Shown: positions 737-30,520 of the stretch, one piece after another
Numbering within the stretch: the stretch's first letter is position 1
How the letters are laid out: each line of letters begins with the position of its first letter
Assembly (NCBI GenBank): GCA_045643765.1
Contig: JAZRFS010000193.1
Span: 1-36,049, forward strand
Direction: 5' to 3'
Length of the DNA stretch: 36,049 nt
Source: Eubacteriales bacterium
Lineage (GTDB): Bacteria > Bacillota > Clostridia > Oscillospirales > CAG-272
Translations under genes and position numbers: made by a program
Notes under the pieces: model-generated
What the model saw: only the letters and a program-made list of their open reading frames with translations
What the model was told of the DNA's origin: nothing
Databases searched by the model: none

Positions 737-1072
737 TCAAAGCTCCACCACGGTCACACCGTGGTTGGAAACACGAAGCAGAGGCTCTAAATCTCGGCAT
801 TTATTTTTAAGGGCAAGGGCATCAAAATTGAACAGAGTGAAGTCCTCACCGAAGATCACCTGCTTTACCTTGCCGCCACGCTCCTGGGCTTTGAGCCATT
901 GGCGCGCCTTCTGGCAGATGGCTCCACCCTTTCCCGTGCTGCCGTAGCCATGTACGATCAGCACCACGTCGTATTTATCGCGCTTCAAGCGCGTGATAGA
1001 GTCCTGTAAATAGCGCATCGCGTCTGCCACGATGGGCATGTCCTCTTTGATGTTGATTTCGGTATATCTCAT
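737..1072 (-). CDS. Stand-alone Smr (small MutS-related) domain protein, 111 aa, divergent N-terminal motif
   Basis: The ORF track protein contains VVLIVHGYGSTGKGGAICQKARQWL (Smr HGxG core) and a C-terminal NHGVTVVEL strand, and aligns by eye to E. coli SmrB/MutS2 Smr domains. A GGAGG RBS sits directly after the upstream rSAM stop. Confidence 0.75.
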   Translation of the reverse strand: MRYTEINIKEDMPIVADAMRYLQDSITRLKRDKYDVVLIVHGYGSTGKGGAICQKARQWLKAQERGGKVKQVIFGEDFTLFNFDALALKNKCRDLEPLLRVSNHGVTVVEL

Positions 1073-1081
1073 AAATCCTCC

Positions 1082-2455
1082 TCAAAAGATGATCTCAAAT
1101 GGCAGTTTTTCGGGTTCACAACACGCCACGTCATTTTCAAATTGCTCGTACGTATATCCTCTTTCGAAATATGAGACGGATTTCACGTCATAATAATCCT
1201 TTTGCGTCATCATCAAGCGAGAAATGGCACGGCAAATCTTTTTAGCAGCTTTGCTGTCTATTTCATCACTCAAATCAAGATCCACAAAACCATGGTCGTT
1301 CACAACATACCCATCCGGCACTCTCGCACCTTGCTCAAGCAGATCTTCCAGCAATCCGCTTCCCTTGTAATACACAAGACTGCTTGCCGCAACGCCTTTG
1401 ATAAGATGCCTGTGCTTTTTTAGCCAGCGCACCGTTTCCTCAACCGTTTCATTTGTTTCTCCTGCAAAAAGCAAAATGTTAAGCTTTACCCACACGTTAT
1501 GCTTTTGACATTCTTCTAAAATTTTCAGCGCCCTTTCAAGATATTTTCCCGGGCATTTCGTTTTGTTCATTTTCAAAAGCTGTGTCGGGCTCGCACTTTC
1601 CAATCCGATATCCAATATTTTCAATCCGGTGGCGGCAAGCTTGCCAATCATTTCTATCGGAACACTTTCCACTCTTGTGGTGCAGCGCCACGAAGTGATT
1701 TTTTGGCGCTTTTTCATCTCTTTTACAAGCTCTTCGCACCACGCCTTGTTAAAATGAAAATGAGGTGCTTCGAGATAAACCGAATAATTGCCGTATAGGT
1801 TATCTAAATAGTCGAGCTCTCGCATTACACTTTGAACCGATTTGTTTTGCAAGCGCTTGTTTTTGCCATCTGCACAAAAAGCACACCCCGAGCCACAGCC
1901 GCGCGAAACTTCAATGCTCGGCTGATAAAGCTTGTAGTCAAGCAACAGCTCGTAATTCAAATGTTCAAAGCAACACGTAGCACCGTCTTCCACAAGCTCG
2001 CTCTTTTCCGGGCAAAAGCGCTCTGCCATCTTCTTTTCTCCGAAGCCCTCAATGATCTCGTCTACGTATTTCAGTTTATCTTTCACCCATTCGGCGTTAT
2101 TGTCTACGACCCAACGCCCGCCAACGATGATCTTTTTTCCGTATTTCTCCTTGGCGATCCGGCAAAATTCCGCGCACCACGTTACGGAATAGTAGCTTGG
2201 AATCGACAGCAAAAAGCACTCACATTCCTCCGATATGTCAATGCCCTCTTTTTCTATCCTTTCAAAGAGCGCTGGAGGCGATTTCTGATCTCCTTGGACA
2301 ACAAGCACATTCAGCCCCAAATTGTCGTGCAGTATGGTGGCAAGACCCAAAAGTCCGTAATTCAAGTAACGAATACGGCCTTTTATGAGGTCCGTGCCTT
2401 TTTTGTAATCATACTGCCCCGCCGACACTGCAATAATTTTCTTAATAATAGACAT
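1082..2455 (-). CDS. B12-binding-domain radical SAM protein (class B rSAM), 457 aa
   Basis: The radical SAM CX3CX2C cluster motif is present in SRGCGSGCAFCADG. The N-terminal ~140 aa form a Rossmann-like region (KKIIVGGRWV) typical of the cobalamin-binding domain. No Cys-rich SPASM/twitch tail is present. AAGGAG RBS before the ATG. Confidence 0.88.
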   Translation of the reverse strand: MSIIKKIIAVSAGQYDYKKGTDLIKGRIRYLNYGLLGLATILHDNLGLNVLVVQGDQKSPPALFERIEKEGIDISEECECFLLSIPSYYSVTWCAEFCRIAKEKYGKKIIVGGRWVVDNNAEWVKDKLKYVDEIIEGFGEKKMAERFCPEKSELVEDGATCCFEHLNYELLLDYKLYQPSIEVSRGCGSGCAFCADGKNKRLQNKSVQSVMRELDYLDNLYGNYSVYLEAPHFHFNKAWCEELVKEMKKRQKITSWRCTTRVESVPIEMIGKLAATGLKILDIGLESASPTQLLKMNKTKCPGKYLERALKILEECQKHNVWVKLNILLFAGETNETVEETVRWLKKHRHLIKGVAASSLVYYKGSGLLEDLLEQGARVPDGYVVNDHGFVDLDLSDEIDSKAAKKICRAISRLMMTQKDYYDVKSVSYFERGYTYEQFENDVACCEPEKLPFEIIF

Positions 2456-2742
2456 TTTTCTCCTTTCTCAAAATAAGCTCACTAAAATTCAACAAAGACG
2501 TTCAAATCGACAGAAGAAAAAAGCAAACCTCCTTACGACAGATTGTGAAAAGGACAAAAAAAGTCTGCAATCCTTCGATCGCAGACGCTTAATACCAAAA
2601 ATGAAGACAGCTTCCCCATTGGTTAAATGCCTGCGACAAAAAGACTCAACAAAAGCATGGTGGAGATACTGCAAAGTCTGTCAGGTTTGCAGTAGTGCCT
2701 CCCGGATTGCCGAAGCAACCGCTTAAGTCGCTATTTACTTGT
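2456..2742 (-). promoter_or_regulatory. Long structured 5' leader of the rSAM-Smr operon (riboswitch-like or attenuator, class unassigned)
   Basis: About 290 nt separate the consensus promoter from the ATG. Closing helix: GCGAC (2727-2731) pairs with GTCGC (2633-2637). It encloses a UUCG-tetraloop hairpin (2705-2720) and a 7-bp hairpin CTGCAAA/TTTGCAG (2669-2692) extended by GGAGG/TCTCC. A terminator follows. Confidence 0.55.
2556..2588 (-). terminator. Intrinsic terminator inside the rSAM 5' leader (attenuator)
   Basis: Minus strand reads GTCTGC-gatcgaaggatt-GCAGAC followed by TTTTTTT. It lies ~100 nt upstream of the rSAM ATG and downstream of the promoter. Confidence 0.7.
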
Positions 2743-2748
2743 ACACTC

Positions 2749-2777
2749 ATTATAACACGAGCTTTTCCCCTTGTCAA
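2749..2777 (-). promoter_or_regulatory. Sigma-70/SigA-type promoter of the rSAM-Smr operon
   Basis: Minus strand reads TTGACA, a 17-nt spacer and TATAAT, with an extended TGn (gTGtTATAAT). Both hexamers match the consensus perfectly. Confidence 0.75.
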
Positions 2778-2950
2778 TACACTTTTGGAAAATTATGGAA
2801 ATTTTGTCGTTCGGTAGCCTTTACAACGACTGCTACGCGTACCTAAAAGAAAAAATGTCCGTCCCTTTTCTATCATTTTTCTGACATTTTTCCAAATAAA
2901 AGGGACGAAACGGGGTGATTTTGCCCATTTTTCGGAGTAAACTGTGACGA

Positions 2951-3028
2951 GGAGGGACAATATGGCGATGGTCGAAATCTCGTAGCTGTTAACGCGGCGC
3001 GTGGGTTCAAATCCCACCTTCTCCGCCA
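2951..3028 (+). tRNA. tRNA-Ser-like gene, apparently degenerate (possible CGA anticodon; D-arm region shortened)
   Basis: The 3' two-thirds is clearly tRNA-Ser-like: variable arm GCTG-TTAACG-CGGC, T-arm GTGGG-TTCAAAT-CCCAC, acceptor 3' strand CTTCTCC, discriminator G and encoded CCA (3026-3028). The 5' strand GGAGGGA pairs only imperfectly. The anticodon stem has a mismatch and I could not fold a normal D-arm by hand. Confidence 0.45.
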
Positions 3029-3034
3029 AGCACT

Positions 3035-3071
3035 GGCGCAGCACATTTTGTGTTGCGCCTTTTGCATTTTT
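3035..3071 (+). terminator. Intrinsic terminator downstream of the tRNA-Ser-like gene
   Basis: 10-bp stem GGCGCAGCAC-atttt-GTGTTGCGCC followed by TTTTGCATTTTT. Confidence 0.8.
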
Positions 3072-3091: not shown

Positions 3092-3120
3092 TTTACAAAT
3101 GCTAATATATGTGCTATAAT
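3092..3120 (+). promoter_or_regulatory. Promoter of the plus-strand four-gene operon
   Basis: TTTACA, a 17-nt spacer and TATAAT with an extended TGn (gTGcTATAAT). A second, similar -10 box (TGcTACAAT) lies at 3203-3212. Confidence 0.6.
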
Positions 3121-3242
3121 AACCTTACTCCCACTCTCACTTAACTTTTTGAAACTAATAACCCAAAATACATTTTGAGTGCATTCCATTATTTTTTTGC
3201 ATGTGCTACAATTTAGACACCGACAAAACAGGAGGCCCTCAA

Positions 3243-3560
3243 ATGACAATCAAAATTCTCTGCAAAATTACCGAACAAGGCACCCATTCCTTCTTCCTGA
3301 AAAAAGATCACACGGACTACTATCTTTTTTCTCAAAATTATCGCAAAGGCGTGCACAAGTATTACGCCCGTTCCGTTCCTTTCAACGAAGCAATTGACTT
3401 CTCCAGATCTAAGCAAGACTCCGCTATACTTCGCACTATGGAGAAAATCAGAACCCATGCAAAATATGTTGAAAAGCAGTACAACATCATTATTTGTCAA
3501 AAAAGCCAAAAACGTAGAAACATTCATCCATTTGATTTCAATGATCGTTTCTATGCTTAA
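3243..3560 (+). CDS. Small conserved hypothetical protein (105 aa from the RBS-supported ATG)
   Basis: An AGGAGG RBS 7 nt upstream of ATG 3243 makes the track start at 3201 unlikely. Sequence begins MTIKILCKITEQGTHSFFLKKDHTDYYLFSQNYRKGV..., with a basic tail KSQKRRN. I recognise no domain. Confidence 0.7.
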   Translation: MTIKILCKITEQGTHSFFLKKDHTDYYLFSQNYRKGVHKYYARSVPFNEAIDFSRSKQDSAILRTMEKIRTHAKYVEKQYNIIICQKSQKRRNIHPFDFNDRFYA

Positions 3561-3572
3561 TCGGAGGAAATC

Positions 3573-4688
3573 ATGGAAATACGAAATTTCATTTATAGCT
3601 TTTCATTAGATCCTAAAGCAACGGGAAGCAAAATCAAAAATCTCAGAAAATCTAAAAAAATGACAGCCGAAAAGCTCGCAGAAACATTACTTTGCTCCGT
3701 GAAAACCGTCTCTTCCTGGGAAACTGGCACACGTTTCCCCTCCCTAGATGCACTTGTGGATCTGGCCAACCTTTTTGACATAAGTGTTCACTCTTTGATG
3801 CTTCCGTTTGATAACTGTTCAGAATCCCCCATCAAAAGCCCTAATCCTAACGATTATTCCGTTTTTGACTCCGCTTATTCAATTGGCCTGACCGACGACG
3901 AGATAACTCAAACCCTTTTTATAAGAGAAGAATATTTGATCCAACGACTGCTTTGCGATGTATTTACCAACCAAAATCAATGCGAATTGGAAGCACTCGC
4001 CTATGCGTTACAACGCACACCCGTTCGTGAACTCCCCTCCCTAAAAAATAACACCGCCGATGCTTTTTGGAAATTTAAAAAAGAGCATTTTTATCATTCA
4101 CAAACGGCATCCATATTATTTAACCGCATTCTTCGCGGCGAATGCTTTCCTAACACCTTGAACGCGATGGATCTATTTGAAAAATGCGTGTTTTTAACTA
4201 TGCTTTGCTATTTCCCCGAATTTCGGAATTGGGACTGTGCAAAGATGCTATATGAAACCGGTGCACGCTTTATAGATTGTCAATTCTCCTCCAATGCCGA
4301 AAAAATTAAGCAGTTTTCCCTTAAGAAAGAGCAAGAGCGCCTATTTAACGTTCACGCCGCCACCATTACATCCGAAGAAGAACTATTATGCTTTTGGGGC
4401 CTAGACCCACATATGAGCGAAGAACGAAAAAACAAGTGGTTGGGCTGGTTAGAGACACCGAGATATAAAGACAATCCTGATTATTATGATAAAAAAATTC
4501 TCCGCATGGTCACTGATAATTGCGGAGACCCAGAAGAACGCAAAACGTTGGCAAAATATTATTCCGTTTTTGATTTCATCATTGACACCGTGGAAAGCCT
4601 GGATGATTTTGCGAAACGCCGCGTGGAAGCAGATATGTGCTTTGAAGAATATATTGAACTTTTGTTGGAAAGAGGTGCGGTCTCATGA
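3573..4688 (+). CDS. XRE-family HTH protein with a ~300-aa uncharacterised C-terminal domain (371 aa)
   Basis: N-terminal HTH_3 signature IKNLRKSKKMTAEKLAETLLCSVKTVSSWETGTRFPSLDALVDLANLFDISVHSLM. GGAGG RBS. The stop overlaps the next start (ATGA at 4685-4688). Confidence 0.85.
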   Translation: MEIRNFIYSFSLDPKATGSKIKNLRKSKKMTAEKLAETLLCSVKTVSSWETGTRFPSLDALVDLANLFDISVHSLMLPFDNCSESPIKSPNPNDYSVFDSAYSIGLTDDEITQTLFIREEYLIQRLLCDVFTNQNQCELEALAYALQRTPVRELPSLKNNTADAFWKFKKEHFYHSQTASILFNRILRGECFPNTLNAMDLFEKCVFLTMLCYFPEFRNWDCAKMLYETGARFIDCQFSSNAEKIKQFSLKKEQERLFNVHAATITSEEELLCFWGLDPHMSEERKNKWLGWLETPRYKDNPDYYDKKILRMVTDNCGDPEERKTLAKYYSVFDFIIDTVESLDDFAKRRVEADMCFEEYIELLLERGAVS

Positions 4689-5611
4689 TAAATAAAAAAG
4701 TTTTAAGTCATATGGCAACCGGGCGATTTATCAGAGAAAAACGCACAGAGTTGAATCTCACCCAGGACGAGCTCGCGCTAAAACTCGGTATCACCAAAAA
4801 CGCCATTTCCAACTGGGAAAACGCAAACGCATTGGTAGACGTGAAGTATCTGATCCCGCTCAGCAATATTTTCAGCGTTAAAGTTGATGAGCTCCTATTT
4901 CCGAATACCCTTACCCCAAACGAAAATTCTTATTCCGATATCAGCACGCAATTCATAAAAATGACCCGCTTTGAGATCACGGATCCCAAACTGTGCAAAA
5001 AATTATTGGATATGTTTGTGGATTGCAAGATACTTCTTACCAACCTGATAAAAGAATACCAGTCCACGCGCGACGAAAAGATACTGCTTCAAATTTTACA
5101 AGAAAACAAATTCGGTTTTGGTTTCTTCCGCTTTGAAGAACCACTTGACCGCGCAGCCCTGGAAAACACTTTAGACAAAACGTTCTCCGTAGAGGACCAA
5201 TTACAAACGATATGGGAGCCCTTCTTGTCTAGTAGTCAAGCCTATGCAGAAGAAATCAATGAAAAAGGCATTCATGTCTCTCGCATTTTTTTAGATGAAG
5301 ATTATGTATACAATTATATAGAAACAAAAGACGGACGCGGACACGGCATGTCTTCCAACATCGCTATGGCAAACTTTATCTTTGATTTTGGCAACGAACG
5401 AATTTTCAGAAAATTCATCTCCACTTTCAGCCAAAAATACAAAAATGACATTCTGTTTAATTTGCATTATTTCATTAAAGAAACCAGAACTCATGCAATT
5501 CCCACTCACCAGGAACGCAAGGCCATGAAATATCTGCTTCGTGCCGGAGCAGAGCTTTGGGTAGACGGCGAAAATCAAACAAAGAAGCTTATGCTGTACG
5601 TGTTCAATTAG
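4685..5611 (+). CDS. XRE-family HTH protein with a ~240-aa uncharacterised C-terminal domain (308 aa)
   Basis: HTH_3 signature IREKRTELNLTQDELALKLGITKNAISNWENANALVDVKYLIPLSNIFSVKVDELL. Translationally coupled to the upstream XRE gene. Confidence 0.85.
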   Translation: MINKKVLSHMATGRFIREKRTELNLTQDELALKLGITKNAISNWENANALVDVKYLIPLSNIFSVKVDELLFPNTLTPNENSYSDISTQFIKMTRFEITDPKLCKKLLDMFVDCKILLTNLIKEYQSTRDEKILLQILQENKFGFGFFRFEEPLDRAALENTLDKTFSVEDQLQTIWEPFLSSSQAYAEEINEKGIHVSRIFLDEDYVYNYIETKDGRGHGMSSNIAMANFIFDFGNERIFRKFISTFSQKYKNDILFNLHYFIKETRTHAIPTHQERKAMKYLLRAGAELWVDGENQTKKLMLYVFN

Positions 5612-5623
5612 GAGTTATGGTAC

Positions 5624-6538
5624 ATGAATAAAACAGACATTTTATTCCCCCTCCGCAAGCAGTACAATAGTCATTGTTGGCGTTGCAAAAGCCCCATTTC
5701 TTCCCTCTACTGTGAACAATGCAGTCACTGCAATTGGTATGTTTGCACCGTTTGTGGTTCTTGTTACTTAGGACAATGTACTTTTGCAACGTGTGGCTTT
5801 GATGAAAACGGTCTGCACCGCAATGGCACGAAATTTTCGGATAAAGGTTTTGATGTAAGAGGTTTCGACATCGAAGGTTTTGACCAATACGGTTATAATC
5901 AATACGGCTATGACCGCACCGGCTATGATAAACACGGTTATAACCGAAGCGGCTACGACCATGACGGGTTTGACAAATACGGTTACGATTGTGATGGATA
6001 TGACCGTAGCGGATTCGATTATGATGGCTATGATAGAGAGGGCTACAACAGCCGTGGATACGATCGCAACTTATTAAACCGCGATGGCTACAATCCAGCG
6101 GGTTTTGACAAAGACGGTTATGATAAAAACGGCTACAATAAGGATGGCTTTGATAGAAACGGTGTAAACCGTCAAGGCATTGACAAAAAAGGCCTTGATG
6201 CAGAATGGCGCAGTTTAATCAAGCGCAGGGTGGCTTATATAAGTGCAGGTAATAACATAAAAAAAGGAACTATAATTGACTGCTATATCCGAGCCCAAAC
6301 TTACTATGTTGACGTACAATTCGATGATGGTGTAATCTATCGCAAAATTGATTTCAACCACACTCGTTCCATAGGGATTTTAAAGTTTTTGATAAAGAAA
6401 TCAAAAGGCTACACTTATAAACAATTTGAAACCCCGCCCCATATGGGGCGTCTACTTTGTTTATTCTCCCTCCTCCAACACCTCGTCGGCGAGACTGCGC
6501 ATTGGAAGGTGCTGGCGGCATCCTACGTGGCACATTGA
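5624..6538 (+). CDS. Cys-rich zinc-ribbon protein with 24 G-[YF]-[DN]-x-x pentapeptide repeats and a small beta-rich C-terminal domain; the 3' tail is probably chimeric
   Basis: AGGAG RBS. The N-terminus has ten Cys in CxxC-type spacing (CWRC...CEQCSHC...CTVCGSC...C...C). Residues 75-194 are pentads in perfect register. The last ~36 aa read through the hairpin and antisense of an integrase remnant after an abrupt composition change at ~6430. Confidence 0.8.
   Translation: MNKTDILFPLRKQYNSHCWRCKSPISSLYCEQCSHCNWYVCTVCGSCYLGQCTFATCGFDENGLHRNGTKFSDKGFDVRGFDIEGFDQYGYNQYGYDRTGYDKHGYNRSGYDHDGFDKYGYDCDGYDRSGFDYDGYDREGYNSRGYDRNLLNRDGYNPAGFDKDGYDKNGYNKDGFDRNGVNRQGIDKKGLDAEWRSLIKRRVAYISAGNNIKKGTIIDCYIRAQTYYVDVQFDDGVIYRKIDFNHTRSIGILKFLIKKSKGYTYKQFETPPHMGRLLCLFSLLQHLVGETAHWKVLAASYVAH
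5846..6205 (+). repeat. Coding tandem repeat, 15-nt period (24 pentapeptide units)
   Basis: Units are GFDVR GFDIE GFDQY GYNQY GYDRT GYDKH GYNRS GYDHD GFDKY GYDCD GYDRS GFDYD GYDRE GYNSR GYDRN LLNRD GYNPA GFDKD GYDKN GYNKD GFDRN GVNRQ GIDKK GLDAE. Synonymous codons vary between units (ggt/ggc/gga/ggg, tat/tac, gat/gac). Confidence 0.9.
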
Positions 6539-30443: not shown

Positions 30444-30520
30444 TGGTGGAGACAGTTGGAATCGAACCAACGACCTCATGCATGTCAAGCATGCGCTCTA
30501 ACCATCTGGGCTATGCCTCC
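30444..30520 (-). tRNA. tRNA-Val (anticodon GAC)
   Basis: The reverse complement GGAGGCATAGCCCAGATGGTTAGAGCGCATGCTTGACATGCATGAGGTCGTTGGTTCGATTCCAACTGTCTCCACCA folds as a cloverleaf. Acceptor GGAGGCA/TGTCTCC, anticodon arm CATGC-TTGACAT-GCATG, T-arm GTTGG-TTCGATT-CCAAC, encoded CCA. Confidence 0.9.

Follow-up and report, generated by a model that had tools for sequence, protein, structure and literature searches.

A radical SAM enzyme gene coupled to a stand-alone Smr gene at the edge of an AT-rich island of a Clostridia contig: a candidate nucleotide-modifying defence enzyme

Our study concerns a block of three genes at the left end of a stretch of 36,049 nucleotides from a Eubacteriales bacterium (assembly GCA_045643765.1, contig JAZRFS010000193.1), the whole of which we call the window. 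The block runs head to tail on the minus strand. It comprises a gene for a radical S-adenosylmethionine (rSAM) enzyme of 457 amino acids (1082-2455, TGA stop at 1084-1082), a gene for a Smr protein of 111 amino acids (737-1072, ATG at 1072) and a gene for a MATE efflux transporter (1-717), of which the N-terminal 239 residues are present and which continues past the window end. The rSAM and Smr genes are separated by a 9-nt gap in which the GGAGG ribosome-binding site of Smr (1077-1081, minus strand) lies directly 3' of the rSAM stop codon, and the 19 nt between the Smr stop and the MATE ATG at 717 contain AAAGGAG. Ahead of rSAM and Smr, and possibly of MATE, stands a consensus sigma-70 promoter (2749-2777, minus strand) that matches TTGACA-17-TATAAT at 12 of 12 positions and carries a TG extension. 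A previous sequence-only reading of this DNA had proposed the rSAM and Smr genes as a two-gene module, perhaps of defence type; its account of the head-to-tail packing, with gaps of 9 and 19 nt, agrees with the coordinates given here.

The larger protein is predicted to have the architecture of a class-B rSAM enzyme. PF04055 matches residues 181-345 (2.7e-18, 67 bits against a cut-off of 29.5 bits), and the structural model (predicted local distance difference test, pLDDT, of 92) shows an N-terminal Rossmann domain resembling B12-binding domains, the rSAM barrel and a helical C-terminal domain. The best match in the fold search was AprD4 (template modelling, TM, score of 0.66), followed by OxsB, MgmA, TsrM and RimO/MiaB, with MtaB also near the top. 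A sequence search of the PDB agrees with this ranking, AprD4 being again the best match and OxsB among the top ones. NCBIfam offers no equivalog: the best match, to HpnJ, reaches 61 bits against a cut-off of 578, and the other best matches are to class-B rSAM families below threshold. The viperin models NF038283, TIGR04278 and PADLOC pVip gave no match to the protein, and the PADLOC model PDC-M51A gave a weak one (27.6 bits, 3e-7); the window lacks a Tmk-like gene.

The enzyme had been described as cobalamin-type. Its class-B architecture is indeed seen in the model, but among the domains called from sequence, only PF04055, PF01713 and MatE were confirmed, whereas the window rSAM gave no match to PF02310 (B12-binding). 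This domain is 'faint' in some homologues, and distant members of the family are named 'B12-binding domain-containing' by NCBI. AprD4 is not known to need B12, and since it is the best structural match, a 'B12-type' label is unsafe for the family. The motif CGSGCAFC (C187-x3-C191-x2-C194) provides the sole invariant cysteines of the family alignment, which argues that there is no SPASM or twitch tail and no auxiliary cluster. No C-terminal cysteine is conserved, PF13186 gave no match, and the window holds no plausible precursor open reading frame. The earlier view that the enzyme does not mature ribosomally synthesized and post-translationally modified peptides (RiPPs) is borne out.

The rSAM family is large and widely scattered. 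A word-indexed search returned 483 homologues, and an exhaustive one about 259 clusters at 50% identity (E <= 1e-30). Hosts among the matches listed include Clostridia, Lachnospiraceae, Spirochaetales, Paenibacillus, Clostridium, Photobacterium, Pseudomonas, Bosea, Acetobacter and Aliarcobacter, among others. Plasmid-borne members come from Sphingomonas, Burkholderia glumae, Pseudomonas and Rhizobium, and six of the nine matching plasmid records are typed as conjugative. The phage collection held no member of the family, a scan of viral contigs recovered merely unrelated rSAM proteins at 21% identity, and a single-protein scan of genome contigs with the window rSAM gave no match.

The neighbours of these genes point to the metabolism of nucleotides and to genetic conflict. 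We surveyed the 147 nearest neighbours of 43 non-redundant rSAM loci. PADLOC models identified dGTPases (7), PDC-M51B, which is Tmk-like (6), and pVips (2), together with components of Lamassu, Gabija, Hachiman, PARIS, MADS and type I restriction-modification systems; the Pfam families found were HD (8), Thymidylate_kin (6), DCD (5) and NACHT (2). Neighbours match the PADLOC dGTPase model at up to 3e-73, and the dCTP deaminase model TIGR02274 at 101 bits against a cut-off of 92.8. Proteobacterial and plasmid loci have a dTMP kinase gene divergently adjoining rSAM, often with a dGTPase-type HD protein next to it; tmk, rSAM and dgt stand together on a Rhizobium plasmid, and tmk adjoins rSAM on the Sphingomonas and Burkholderia plasmids. 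The family matches PDC-M51A weakly (17-49 bits), and the divergent tmk neighbours match PDC-M51B at 1e-14. In a clade of Clostridia (48-56% identity), the operon runs from a dCTP deaminase through a DCD/dUTPase-like gene to rSAM, and lies on DNA that is rich in defence genes or resembles integrative and conjugative elements. Single loci extend the picture (L-numbers label homologous loci in other genomes or contigs, and P-numbers proteins of the rSAM family). In L278 (3672-7107), one operon encodes a 73-aa XRE helix-turn-helix (HTH) protein, an rSAM 64% identical to that of the window, a true pVip (323 bits with the clade hidden Markov model, HMM) and a 251-aa protein without assigned function. 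An RNase III gene ends 6 nt ahead of rSAM in L001, and a Mokosh MkoA gene follows rSAM in L084.

Given these neighbours, namely dTMP kinases, dGTPases, dCTP-deaminase-like proteins and defence genes, we read the rSAM as a conflict enzyme of the nucleotide pool. As far as sequences and gene neighbourhoods tell, its family is horizontally transferred, associated with conflict and tied to the (deoxy)nucleotide pool, and it is rather probable that it consists of defence-type nucleotide enzymes. The same evidence bears on a possible role of the rSAM in RiPP maturation or as a methyltransferase of primary metabolism. Weak sub-threshold matches to class-B families that include RiPP methyltransferases are all that speaks for it, and the lack of a SPASM or twitch domain, a precursor peptide and an equivalog, the nucleotide and defence neighbours, and the patchy spread by horizontal transfer (Clostridia, Spirochaetota, Proteobacteria, Paenibacillus and plasmids) make it most improbable.

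Two members of the family carry additional domains. P0100 (644 aa) has a C-terminal P-loop domain (GEIGSGKN) that is a separate downstream gene in Paenibacillus (L014, 7456-7950). The type of this domain was not resolved by hhalign against the Tmk neighbours, where the Walker A motif alone aligned, by a PDB search, which gave weak P-loop matches, or by a full database search, which gave nothing. P0243 (768 aa) ends in a fused domain of about 325 aa that contains an RNAIAH motif and, by eye, may be HEPN/Abi_2-like. Further recurring neighbours of the close homologues, without Pfam match, are p73 (the XRE HTH protein), the p247/p177 family and p589.

The second gene of the pair encodes a small protein that we assign to the Smr fold. 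Its match to PF01713 is weak (28.1 bits, just over the gathering cut-off, 25.7), yet the assignment is sound because the model (pLDDT 89) has its best Foldseek matches in the Smr domains of MutS2, 2zqe (TM 0.80) and 4och, with probability 1.0 and target-normalised TM scores of 0.75-0.80. The next fold matches are MutS2 on a collided disome, YdaL and SmrB. A search of PDB sequences with the Smr profile returned respiratory syncytial virus F proteins alone, which we rejected as spurious. The sequence HGYGSTG is invariant in the family, and all members also keep a C-terminal N-x-G-V-T-V-V-E. Motif I reads E-I-N-I-K in the window protein, and the DxH motif is found in none of 79 family members, which have N-x-K/E in its place. 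This motif is required for mRNA cleavage by Smr domains, and those that lack it (MutS2, SmrA) are collision sensors and not nucleases (PMC10897456). With a Smr fold but no DxH, the window protein more probably senses or binds ribosomes that have stalled or collided than acts as a nuclease, and by analogy its role would be played on ribosomes. The nuclease activity suggested from sequence alone is doubtful, with DxH missing from the whole family.

That Smr domains bind ribosomes (PMC10897456) would also suit an rSAM that modifies a macromolecule, be it tRNA, rRNA, a ribosomal protein or DNA, with Smr recruiting it to the ribosome or the nucleic acid, or sensing the result. The RNase III partner in L001 is compatible with this possibility, as may be the HEPN/Abi-like fusion seen by eye in P0243, and so is the presence of MiaB, RimO and MtaB among the top folds, which also counts against the nucleotide-based reading that we develop below. 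We nevertheless find a macromolecular substrate unlikely: the rSAM family is most often partnered by enzymes that act on free nucleotides (dTMP kinase, dGTPase, dCTP-deaminase-like proteins), the rSAM has neither conserved auxiliary-cluster cysteines nor a TRAM-like domain, and its sporadic distribution on islands and plasmids disfavours a housekeeping modification.

The genomic contexts of the Smr family provide a second line of evidence. We found 347 close homologues, nearly all of 111-112 aa, and at least 392 matching stretches in species-representative genomes. Neighbours differ from locus to locus in the clade nearest to the window protein. In nine species-level genomes (L180, L181, L183, L186, L187, L197, L260, L265 and L266), a 765-aa protein with an RNase III domain is followed by a pVip and then by Smr, with 4-nt overlaps. 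With NF038283 the Smr-linked pVip reaches 269 bits, and with the PADLOC pVip model 9e-78. The clade to which these pVips belong has 15 members (including L264 and L268-L272): nine are accompanied by Smr, five have a further C-terminal domain of about 95 aa fused to them, possibly DUF2325-like as judged by eye, and one has neither. Every pVip of the clade is preceded by the protein of about 765 aa, in which RNase III is the only recognisable domain. In L177 and L178 (3986-8287), Smr is the first gene of a different operon, which also encodes a HAD hydrolase, a viperin-like rSAM, a WbmS-like deacetylase, a second HAD hydrolase and a glycosyltransferase. The viperin-like rSAM scores 83 bits there, below the cut-off, and the operon looks like sugar or nucleotide-sugar chemistry and not like classical pVip defence. 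It is reasonably supported that this Smr clade is repeatedly co-operonic with antiviral-type rSAM enzymes of two unrelated families. The defence-type interpretation proposed earlier has gained from these comparisons, both through the occurrence of the rSAM family in defence islands and plasmids beside nucleotide-pool enzymes and through the pVip-Smr operons.

Does the pairing of this rSAM with Smr reflect a functional partnership? Besides the window, the two genes adjoin in three loci. In L081 (rSAM 72% identical to that of the window), Smr follows rSAM with a 0-nt gap. In L256 (67%), the order rSAM, Smr, MATE recurs with a 4-nt overlap between the first two and a MATE protein that is 89% identical. 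In L257 (59%), the order is swapped, a p589-like gene being followed by Smr, rSAM and an ADP-ribosylglycohydrolase. In a neighbour-joining tree, the Smr proteins of these four loci form one clade nested among the pVip-linked Smr proteins, and a sister group without rSAM partners is separate. A selected linkage is favoured by the tight coupling, the parallel with pVip and the existence of three architectures, in one of which (L257) the order is swapped.

Several observations weigh against such a partnership. The first concerns frequency. Smr adjoins rSAM in 4 of about 48 family loci, that is, in 4 of about 10 in the clade of at least 59% identity and in none of about 38 more distant ones; close loci without Smr are L083, L084, L258, L276, L278 and L279 (61-75% identity). 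Conversely, this rSAM is missing from all 80 Smr loci surveyed at species level. The proposed two-gene module is narrow, which goes some way towards the refutation named in the earlier reading, a lack of co-occurrence outside close relatives. L179, where Smr is 79% identical and followed by MATE, has no rSAM within about 4 kb, and L176, where Smr is 95% identical, has none within the 285 nt of contig upstream of Smr. Elsewhere, in Oscillospiraceae and Acidobacteriota, Smr is a stable chromosomal gene that lies beside tRNA genes or a conserved upstream gene pair. By eye, this pair looks indolepyruvate-oxidoreductase-like. Among loci L202-L255, a tRNA Gly-Arg-His-Gln-Lys cluster begins 70-130 nt downstream of Smr in 12 genomes, and a tRNA-Gln gene lies downstream in 3.

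Composition provides a second set of adverse observations. The stretch from 1082 to about 6800 is AT-rich (38-45% GC, about 40% from 2456 on) relative to the rest of the window (52-60%). The rSAM gene, at 44.5% GC, falls inside this stretch, as had been claimed for the pair, but Smr (52.1%) and MATE (52.0%) fall outside, with the step exactly at the rSAM/Smr junction. GC at third codon positions tells the same story (0.50 for rSAM, 0.65 for Smr, 0.69 for MATE), so that Smr and MATE are host-like and rSAM is not. L081 repeats the pattern: p50, p589 and rSAM have 37-40% GC, Smr 46% and the flanks 52-57%. The absence of a kinase, HD or DCD partner gene from the window also counts against the predicted role in nucleotide chemistry, and both the substrate of the rSAM and its use of cobalamin are putative.

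A relic upstream of the promoter suggests how the arrangement arose. Positions 2938-3029 (plus strand) hold a degenerate tRNA-Ser(CGA), which aligns over its full length with the tRNA-Ser(CGA) genes upstream of Smr in L202, L205 and L212. It retains the anticodon loop, variable arm, T-arm and CCA end, but its 5' acceptor strand and D-arm are ruined; ARAGORN makes no call here, and Rfam gives a weak match to the 3' end of tmRNA/tRNA. A terminator hairpin lies behind the remnant (3035-3059, plus strand). In nine other genomes an intact tRNA-Ser(CGA) stands divergently just upstream of Smr, so that the simplest reading is an insertion of promoter, leader and rSAM as one cassette into the former tRNA-Ser/Smr intergenic region. 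The remnant is probably the right-hand edge of this cassette, a scar of insertion or recombination. Composition, remnant and the Smr loci without detectable rSAM (L179 and, as far as its short contig reaches, L176) all argue for insertion beside a resident Smr. The cassette fills exactly the intergenic position between tRNA-Ser and Smr, which is one more point against a selected pairing. Loci of tRNA genes are classic hotspots for island insertion.

Taken together, these data could mean that the adjacency is accidental: a housekeeping-type Smr, perhaps with MATE, would have resided by a tRNA-Ser(CGA) hotspot, the rSAM would act alone or with other genes of the island, and Smr would serve the cell in some unrelated way. 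The GC step, repeated in L081, the degenerate tRNA bounding the cassette and the Smr loci devoid of rSAM fit this scenario, and so does the unrelated cargo upstream of Smr in other genomes (a DNA methylase together with a DEDDh-like protein, an ABC ATPase plus a PHP-domain protein, or an AAA_14 protein). Yet chance insertion poorly explains three architectures, among them that of L257, where Smr lies between p589 and rSAM, genes that adjoin each other in L081 and L258. Nor does it explain junctions with gaps of 0-9 nt or 4-nt overlaps and embedded ribosome-binding sites. The pVip-Smr operons are uniform in GC and their downstream flanks differ, and two unrelated antiviral-type rSAM families beside the same Smr clade would be very unlikely by chance. 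On balance, we regard an accidental adjacency as doubtful. Whether Smr works with the rSAM seems to us evenly poised.

The MATE gene had also been given a possible role, as the exporter of a small molecule made by the pair. Its product is a genuine family member (PF01554, MatE, 5.5e-08; NF045539, MATE_efflux1, 1e-76), whose score stays under the cut-off solely through its truncation at the window end. The recurrence of rSAM, Smr and MATE in L256 and a weak MatE gene about 2 kb upstream of rSAM in L278 are in keeping with export. However, Smr and MATE are adjacent without rSAM in L179 and L191-L195, MATE has the GC of the host, no other biosynthetic genes are present and most family loci lack a transporter. 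A small-molecule pathway ending in MATE is therefore very unlikely, and the transporter probably has no part in the function of the rSAM.

Our best reading, to which we give a probability of about 50%, is that the rSAM is a nucleotide-modifying defence enzyme, resembling viperin or OxsB, which is co-expressed with Smr as an accessory for ribosome collisions. The rSAM would have been acquired horizontally and would act on a nucleotide or deoxynucleotide to yield an antiviral analogue that poisons polymerases. The cassette formed by the consensus promoter, the terminator-bearing leader and the rSAM gene would have entered the space that separated a resident Smr-MATE pair from a tRNA-Ser(CGA) gene, with the consequence that Smr would be transcribed with the rSAM and translationally coupled to it. 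Incorporation of a chain-terminating nucleotide would produce truncated transcripts and, on these, stalled ribosomes, which a Smr protein without nuclease motif could bind; the binding might then lead to host translation rescue or to signalling. Of all this, the identities of domains and folds, the gene coupling, the neighbourhoods of the family and the Smr-pVip operons are observed; the nucleotide substrate, the antiviral function, the action of Smr on ribosomes and selection for the rSAM-Smr coupling are inferred. A broader form of this scheme is more tentative. In it, the rSAM family would be a second and independent maker of viperin-like analogues, the DxH-less stand-alone Smr an accessory of both, and chain-terminator immunity would be linked to the sensing or rescue of stalled and collided ribosomes.

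The 5' leader that separates promoter and rSAM (about 290 nt, 2456-2748, minus strand) may add a layer of regulation. It contains a terminator-like hairpin (2586-2563) followed by a T-run, and the perfect promoter (2777-2749) and attenuator noted from sequence alone are both recognisable. The comparison rests on two copies, that of the window and that of L256 (227-470), which are 68% identical over 259 nt and have the promoter region, hairpin and intrinsic terminator in common. An upstream conserved GUCGCAG(G/A)C could pair with the 5' arm of the terminator, GUCUGCGA, and would constitute a possible antiterminator. The leader matched no family in Rfam scans at gathering and E-value thresholds. 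We consider it a candidate attenuator or riboswitch.

The rest of the AT-rich island lies on the plus strand, behind a near-consensus promoter (TTTACA-17-TATAAT with TG, 3092-3120) that points away from that of rSAM and precedes a block of four genes. The first (orf119, 3201-3560) encodes a 119-aa protein of the 'p100' family, divergent to rSAM and a recurrent neighbour of its close homologues: relatives of about 100 aa adjoin rSAM in L084 (5072-5374, E 4e-23) and L276 (5510-5812, E 9e-23). Two XRE-type HTH proteins of 371 and 308 aa follow (orf371 and orf308, 3573-5611; PF01381 at 6e-10 and 2e-12). Their PADLOC matches are confined to the HTH region, and they may regulate the island or act as its sensors. 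Other loci of the close clade have the 73-aa XRE HTH gene directly upstream of rSAM instead. No homology was detected by BLAST among p589, p765 (the pVip-linked protein), orf371 and orf308. The last gene of the block (5624-6538) encodes a 304-aa protein with a cysteine-rich N-terminus (several CxxC pairs) and about 20 short repeats of the form G[YF]D..xG[YF][DN]; it has no match in Pfam or PADLOC. We found no att-like direct repeats bounding the island. An intact tRNA-Val(GAC) at 30444-30520 (minus strand) is the sole tRNA called in the window.

If our reading is correct, the rSAM family would be a new enzyme family, possibly with a new antiviral nucleotide chemistry among the few defences that poison polymerases, and its products would be of pharmacological interest, as are ddhCTP and oxetanocin. 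Genomic data would then also, for the first time, connect viperin-type immunity with Smr ribosome-collision factors, suggesting how cells might handle or exploit truncated chain-terminator transcripts. A full-text search of a literature library found no paper linking viperin or pVip with Smr, prokaryotic viperin with MutS2, or Smr domains with defence islands, and none on PDC-M51 or on an rSAM with dTMP kinase as defence. Even if the pairing in the window is accidental, two results stand, the association of the rSAM family with dTMP kinase, dGTPase and dCTP-deaminase-like genes, and the pVip-Smr operons.

Comparison with known systems helps to place both proteins. Viperin converts CTP into ddhCTP. 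Like pVip, the window rSAM belongs to a family of rSAM enzymes found in defence islands by nucleotide kinases, the two share an operon in L278, and the same Smr clade is operonic with both. The two families are unrelated: that of the window rSAM shows a class-B architecture with a Rossmann domain at the N-terminus, and its partners lean to deoxynucleotide enzymes. OxsB works with OxsA, an HD-domain phosphohydrolase, to turn dAMP, dADP or dATP into oxetanocin, an antiviral nucleoside analogue. OxsB (PDB 5UL2-4) has the same class-B architecture and is a top match, and HD genes of the dGTPase type are the commonest neighbours of the rSAM family. Yet identity is about 15%, OxsB has 744 aa with an extra N-terminal domain, and the HD partners are dGTPase-like proteins of 440-480 aa, not OxsA-like ones; the window has no HD gene. 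AprD4, an rSAM 1,2-diol dehydratase (PDB 6FD2), is the best match in structure and in PDB sequence and has an equal length and three-domain layout. It differs in its 13-14% identity and in using an aminoglycoside and a partner reductase, and no aminoglycoside genes lie in the window.

The window Smr shares the Smr fold and HGxG with SmrB, the Smr domain of MutS2, SmrA/YdaL and Cue2. In contrast to them, it has N-x-K/E for DxH, lacks an N-terminal hook, a KOW domain and a MutS module, and has about 25 aa inserted at residues 75-100; its binding to ribosomes is predicted by analogy. Among candidate systems, PDC-M51 (A, rSAM-like; B, thymidylate-kinase-like) is related to the rSAM family but not identical with it, and its B component is missing from the window. 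Finally, defences that deplete nucleotides, such as the anti-phage dGTPase and dCTP deaminase, use the same types of enzyme that adjoin the rSAM family. Those are single genes that deplete deoxynucleoside triphosphates and have no counterpart in the window, whereas the rSAM family couples such enzymes to an rSAM, which suggests that they supply or process its substrate rather than simply deplete the pool.

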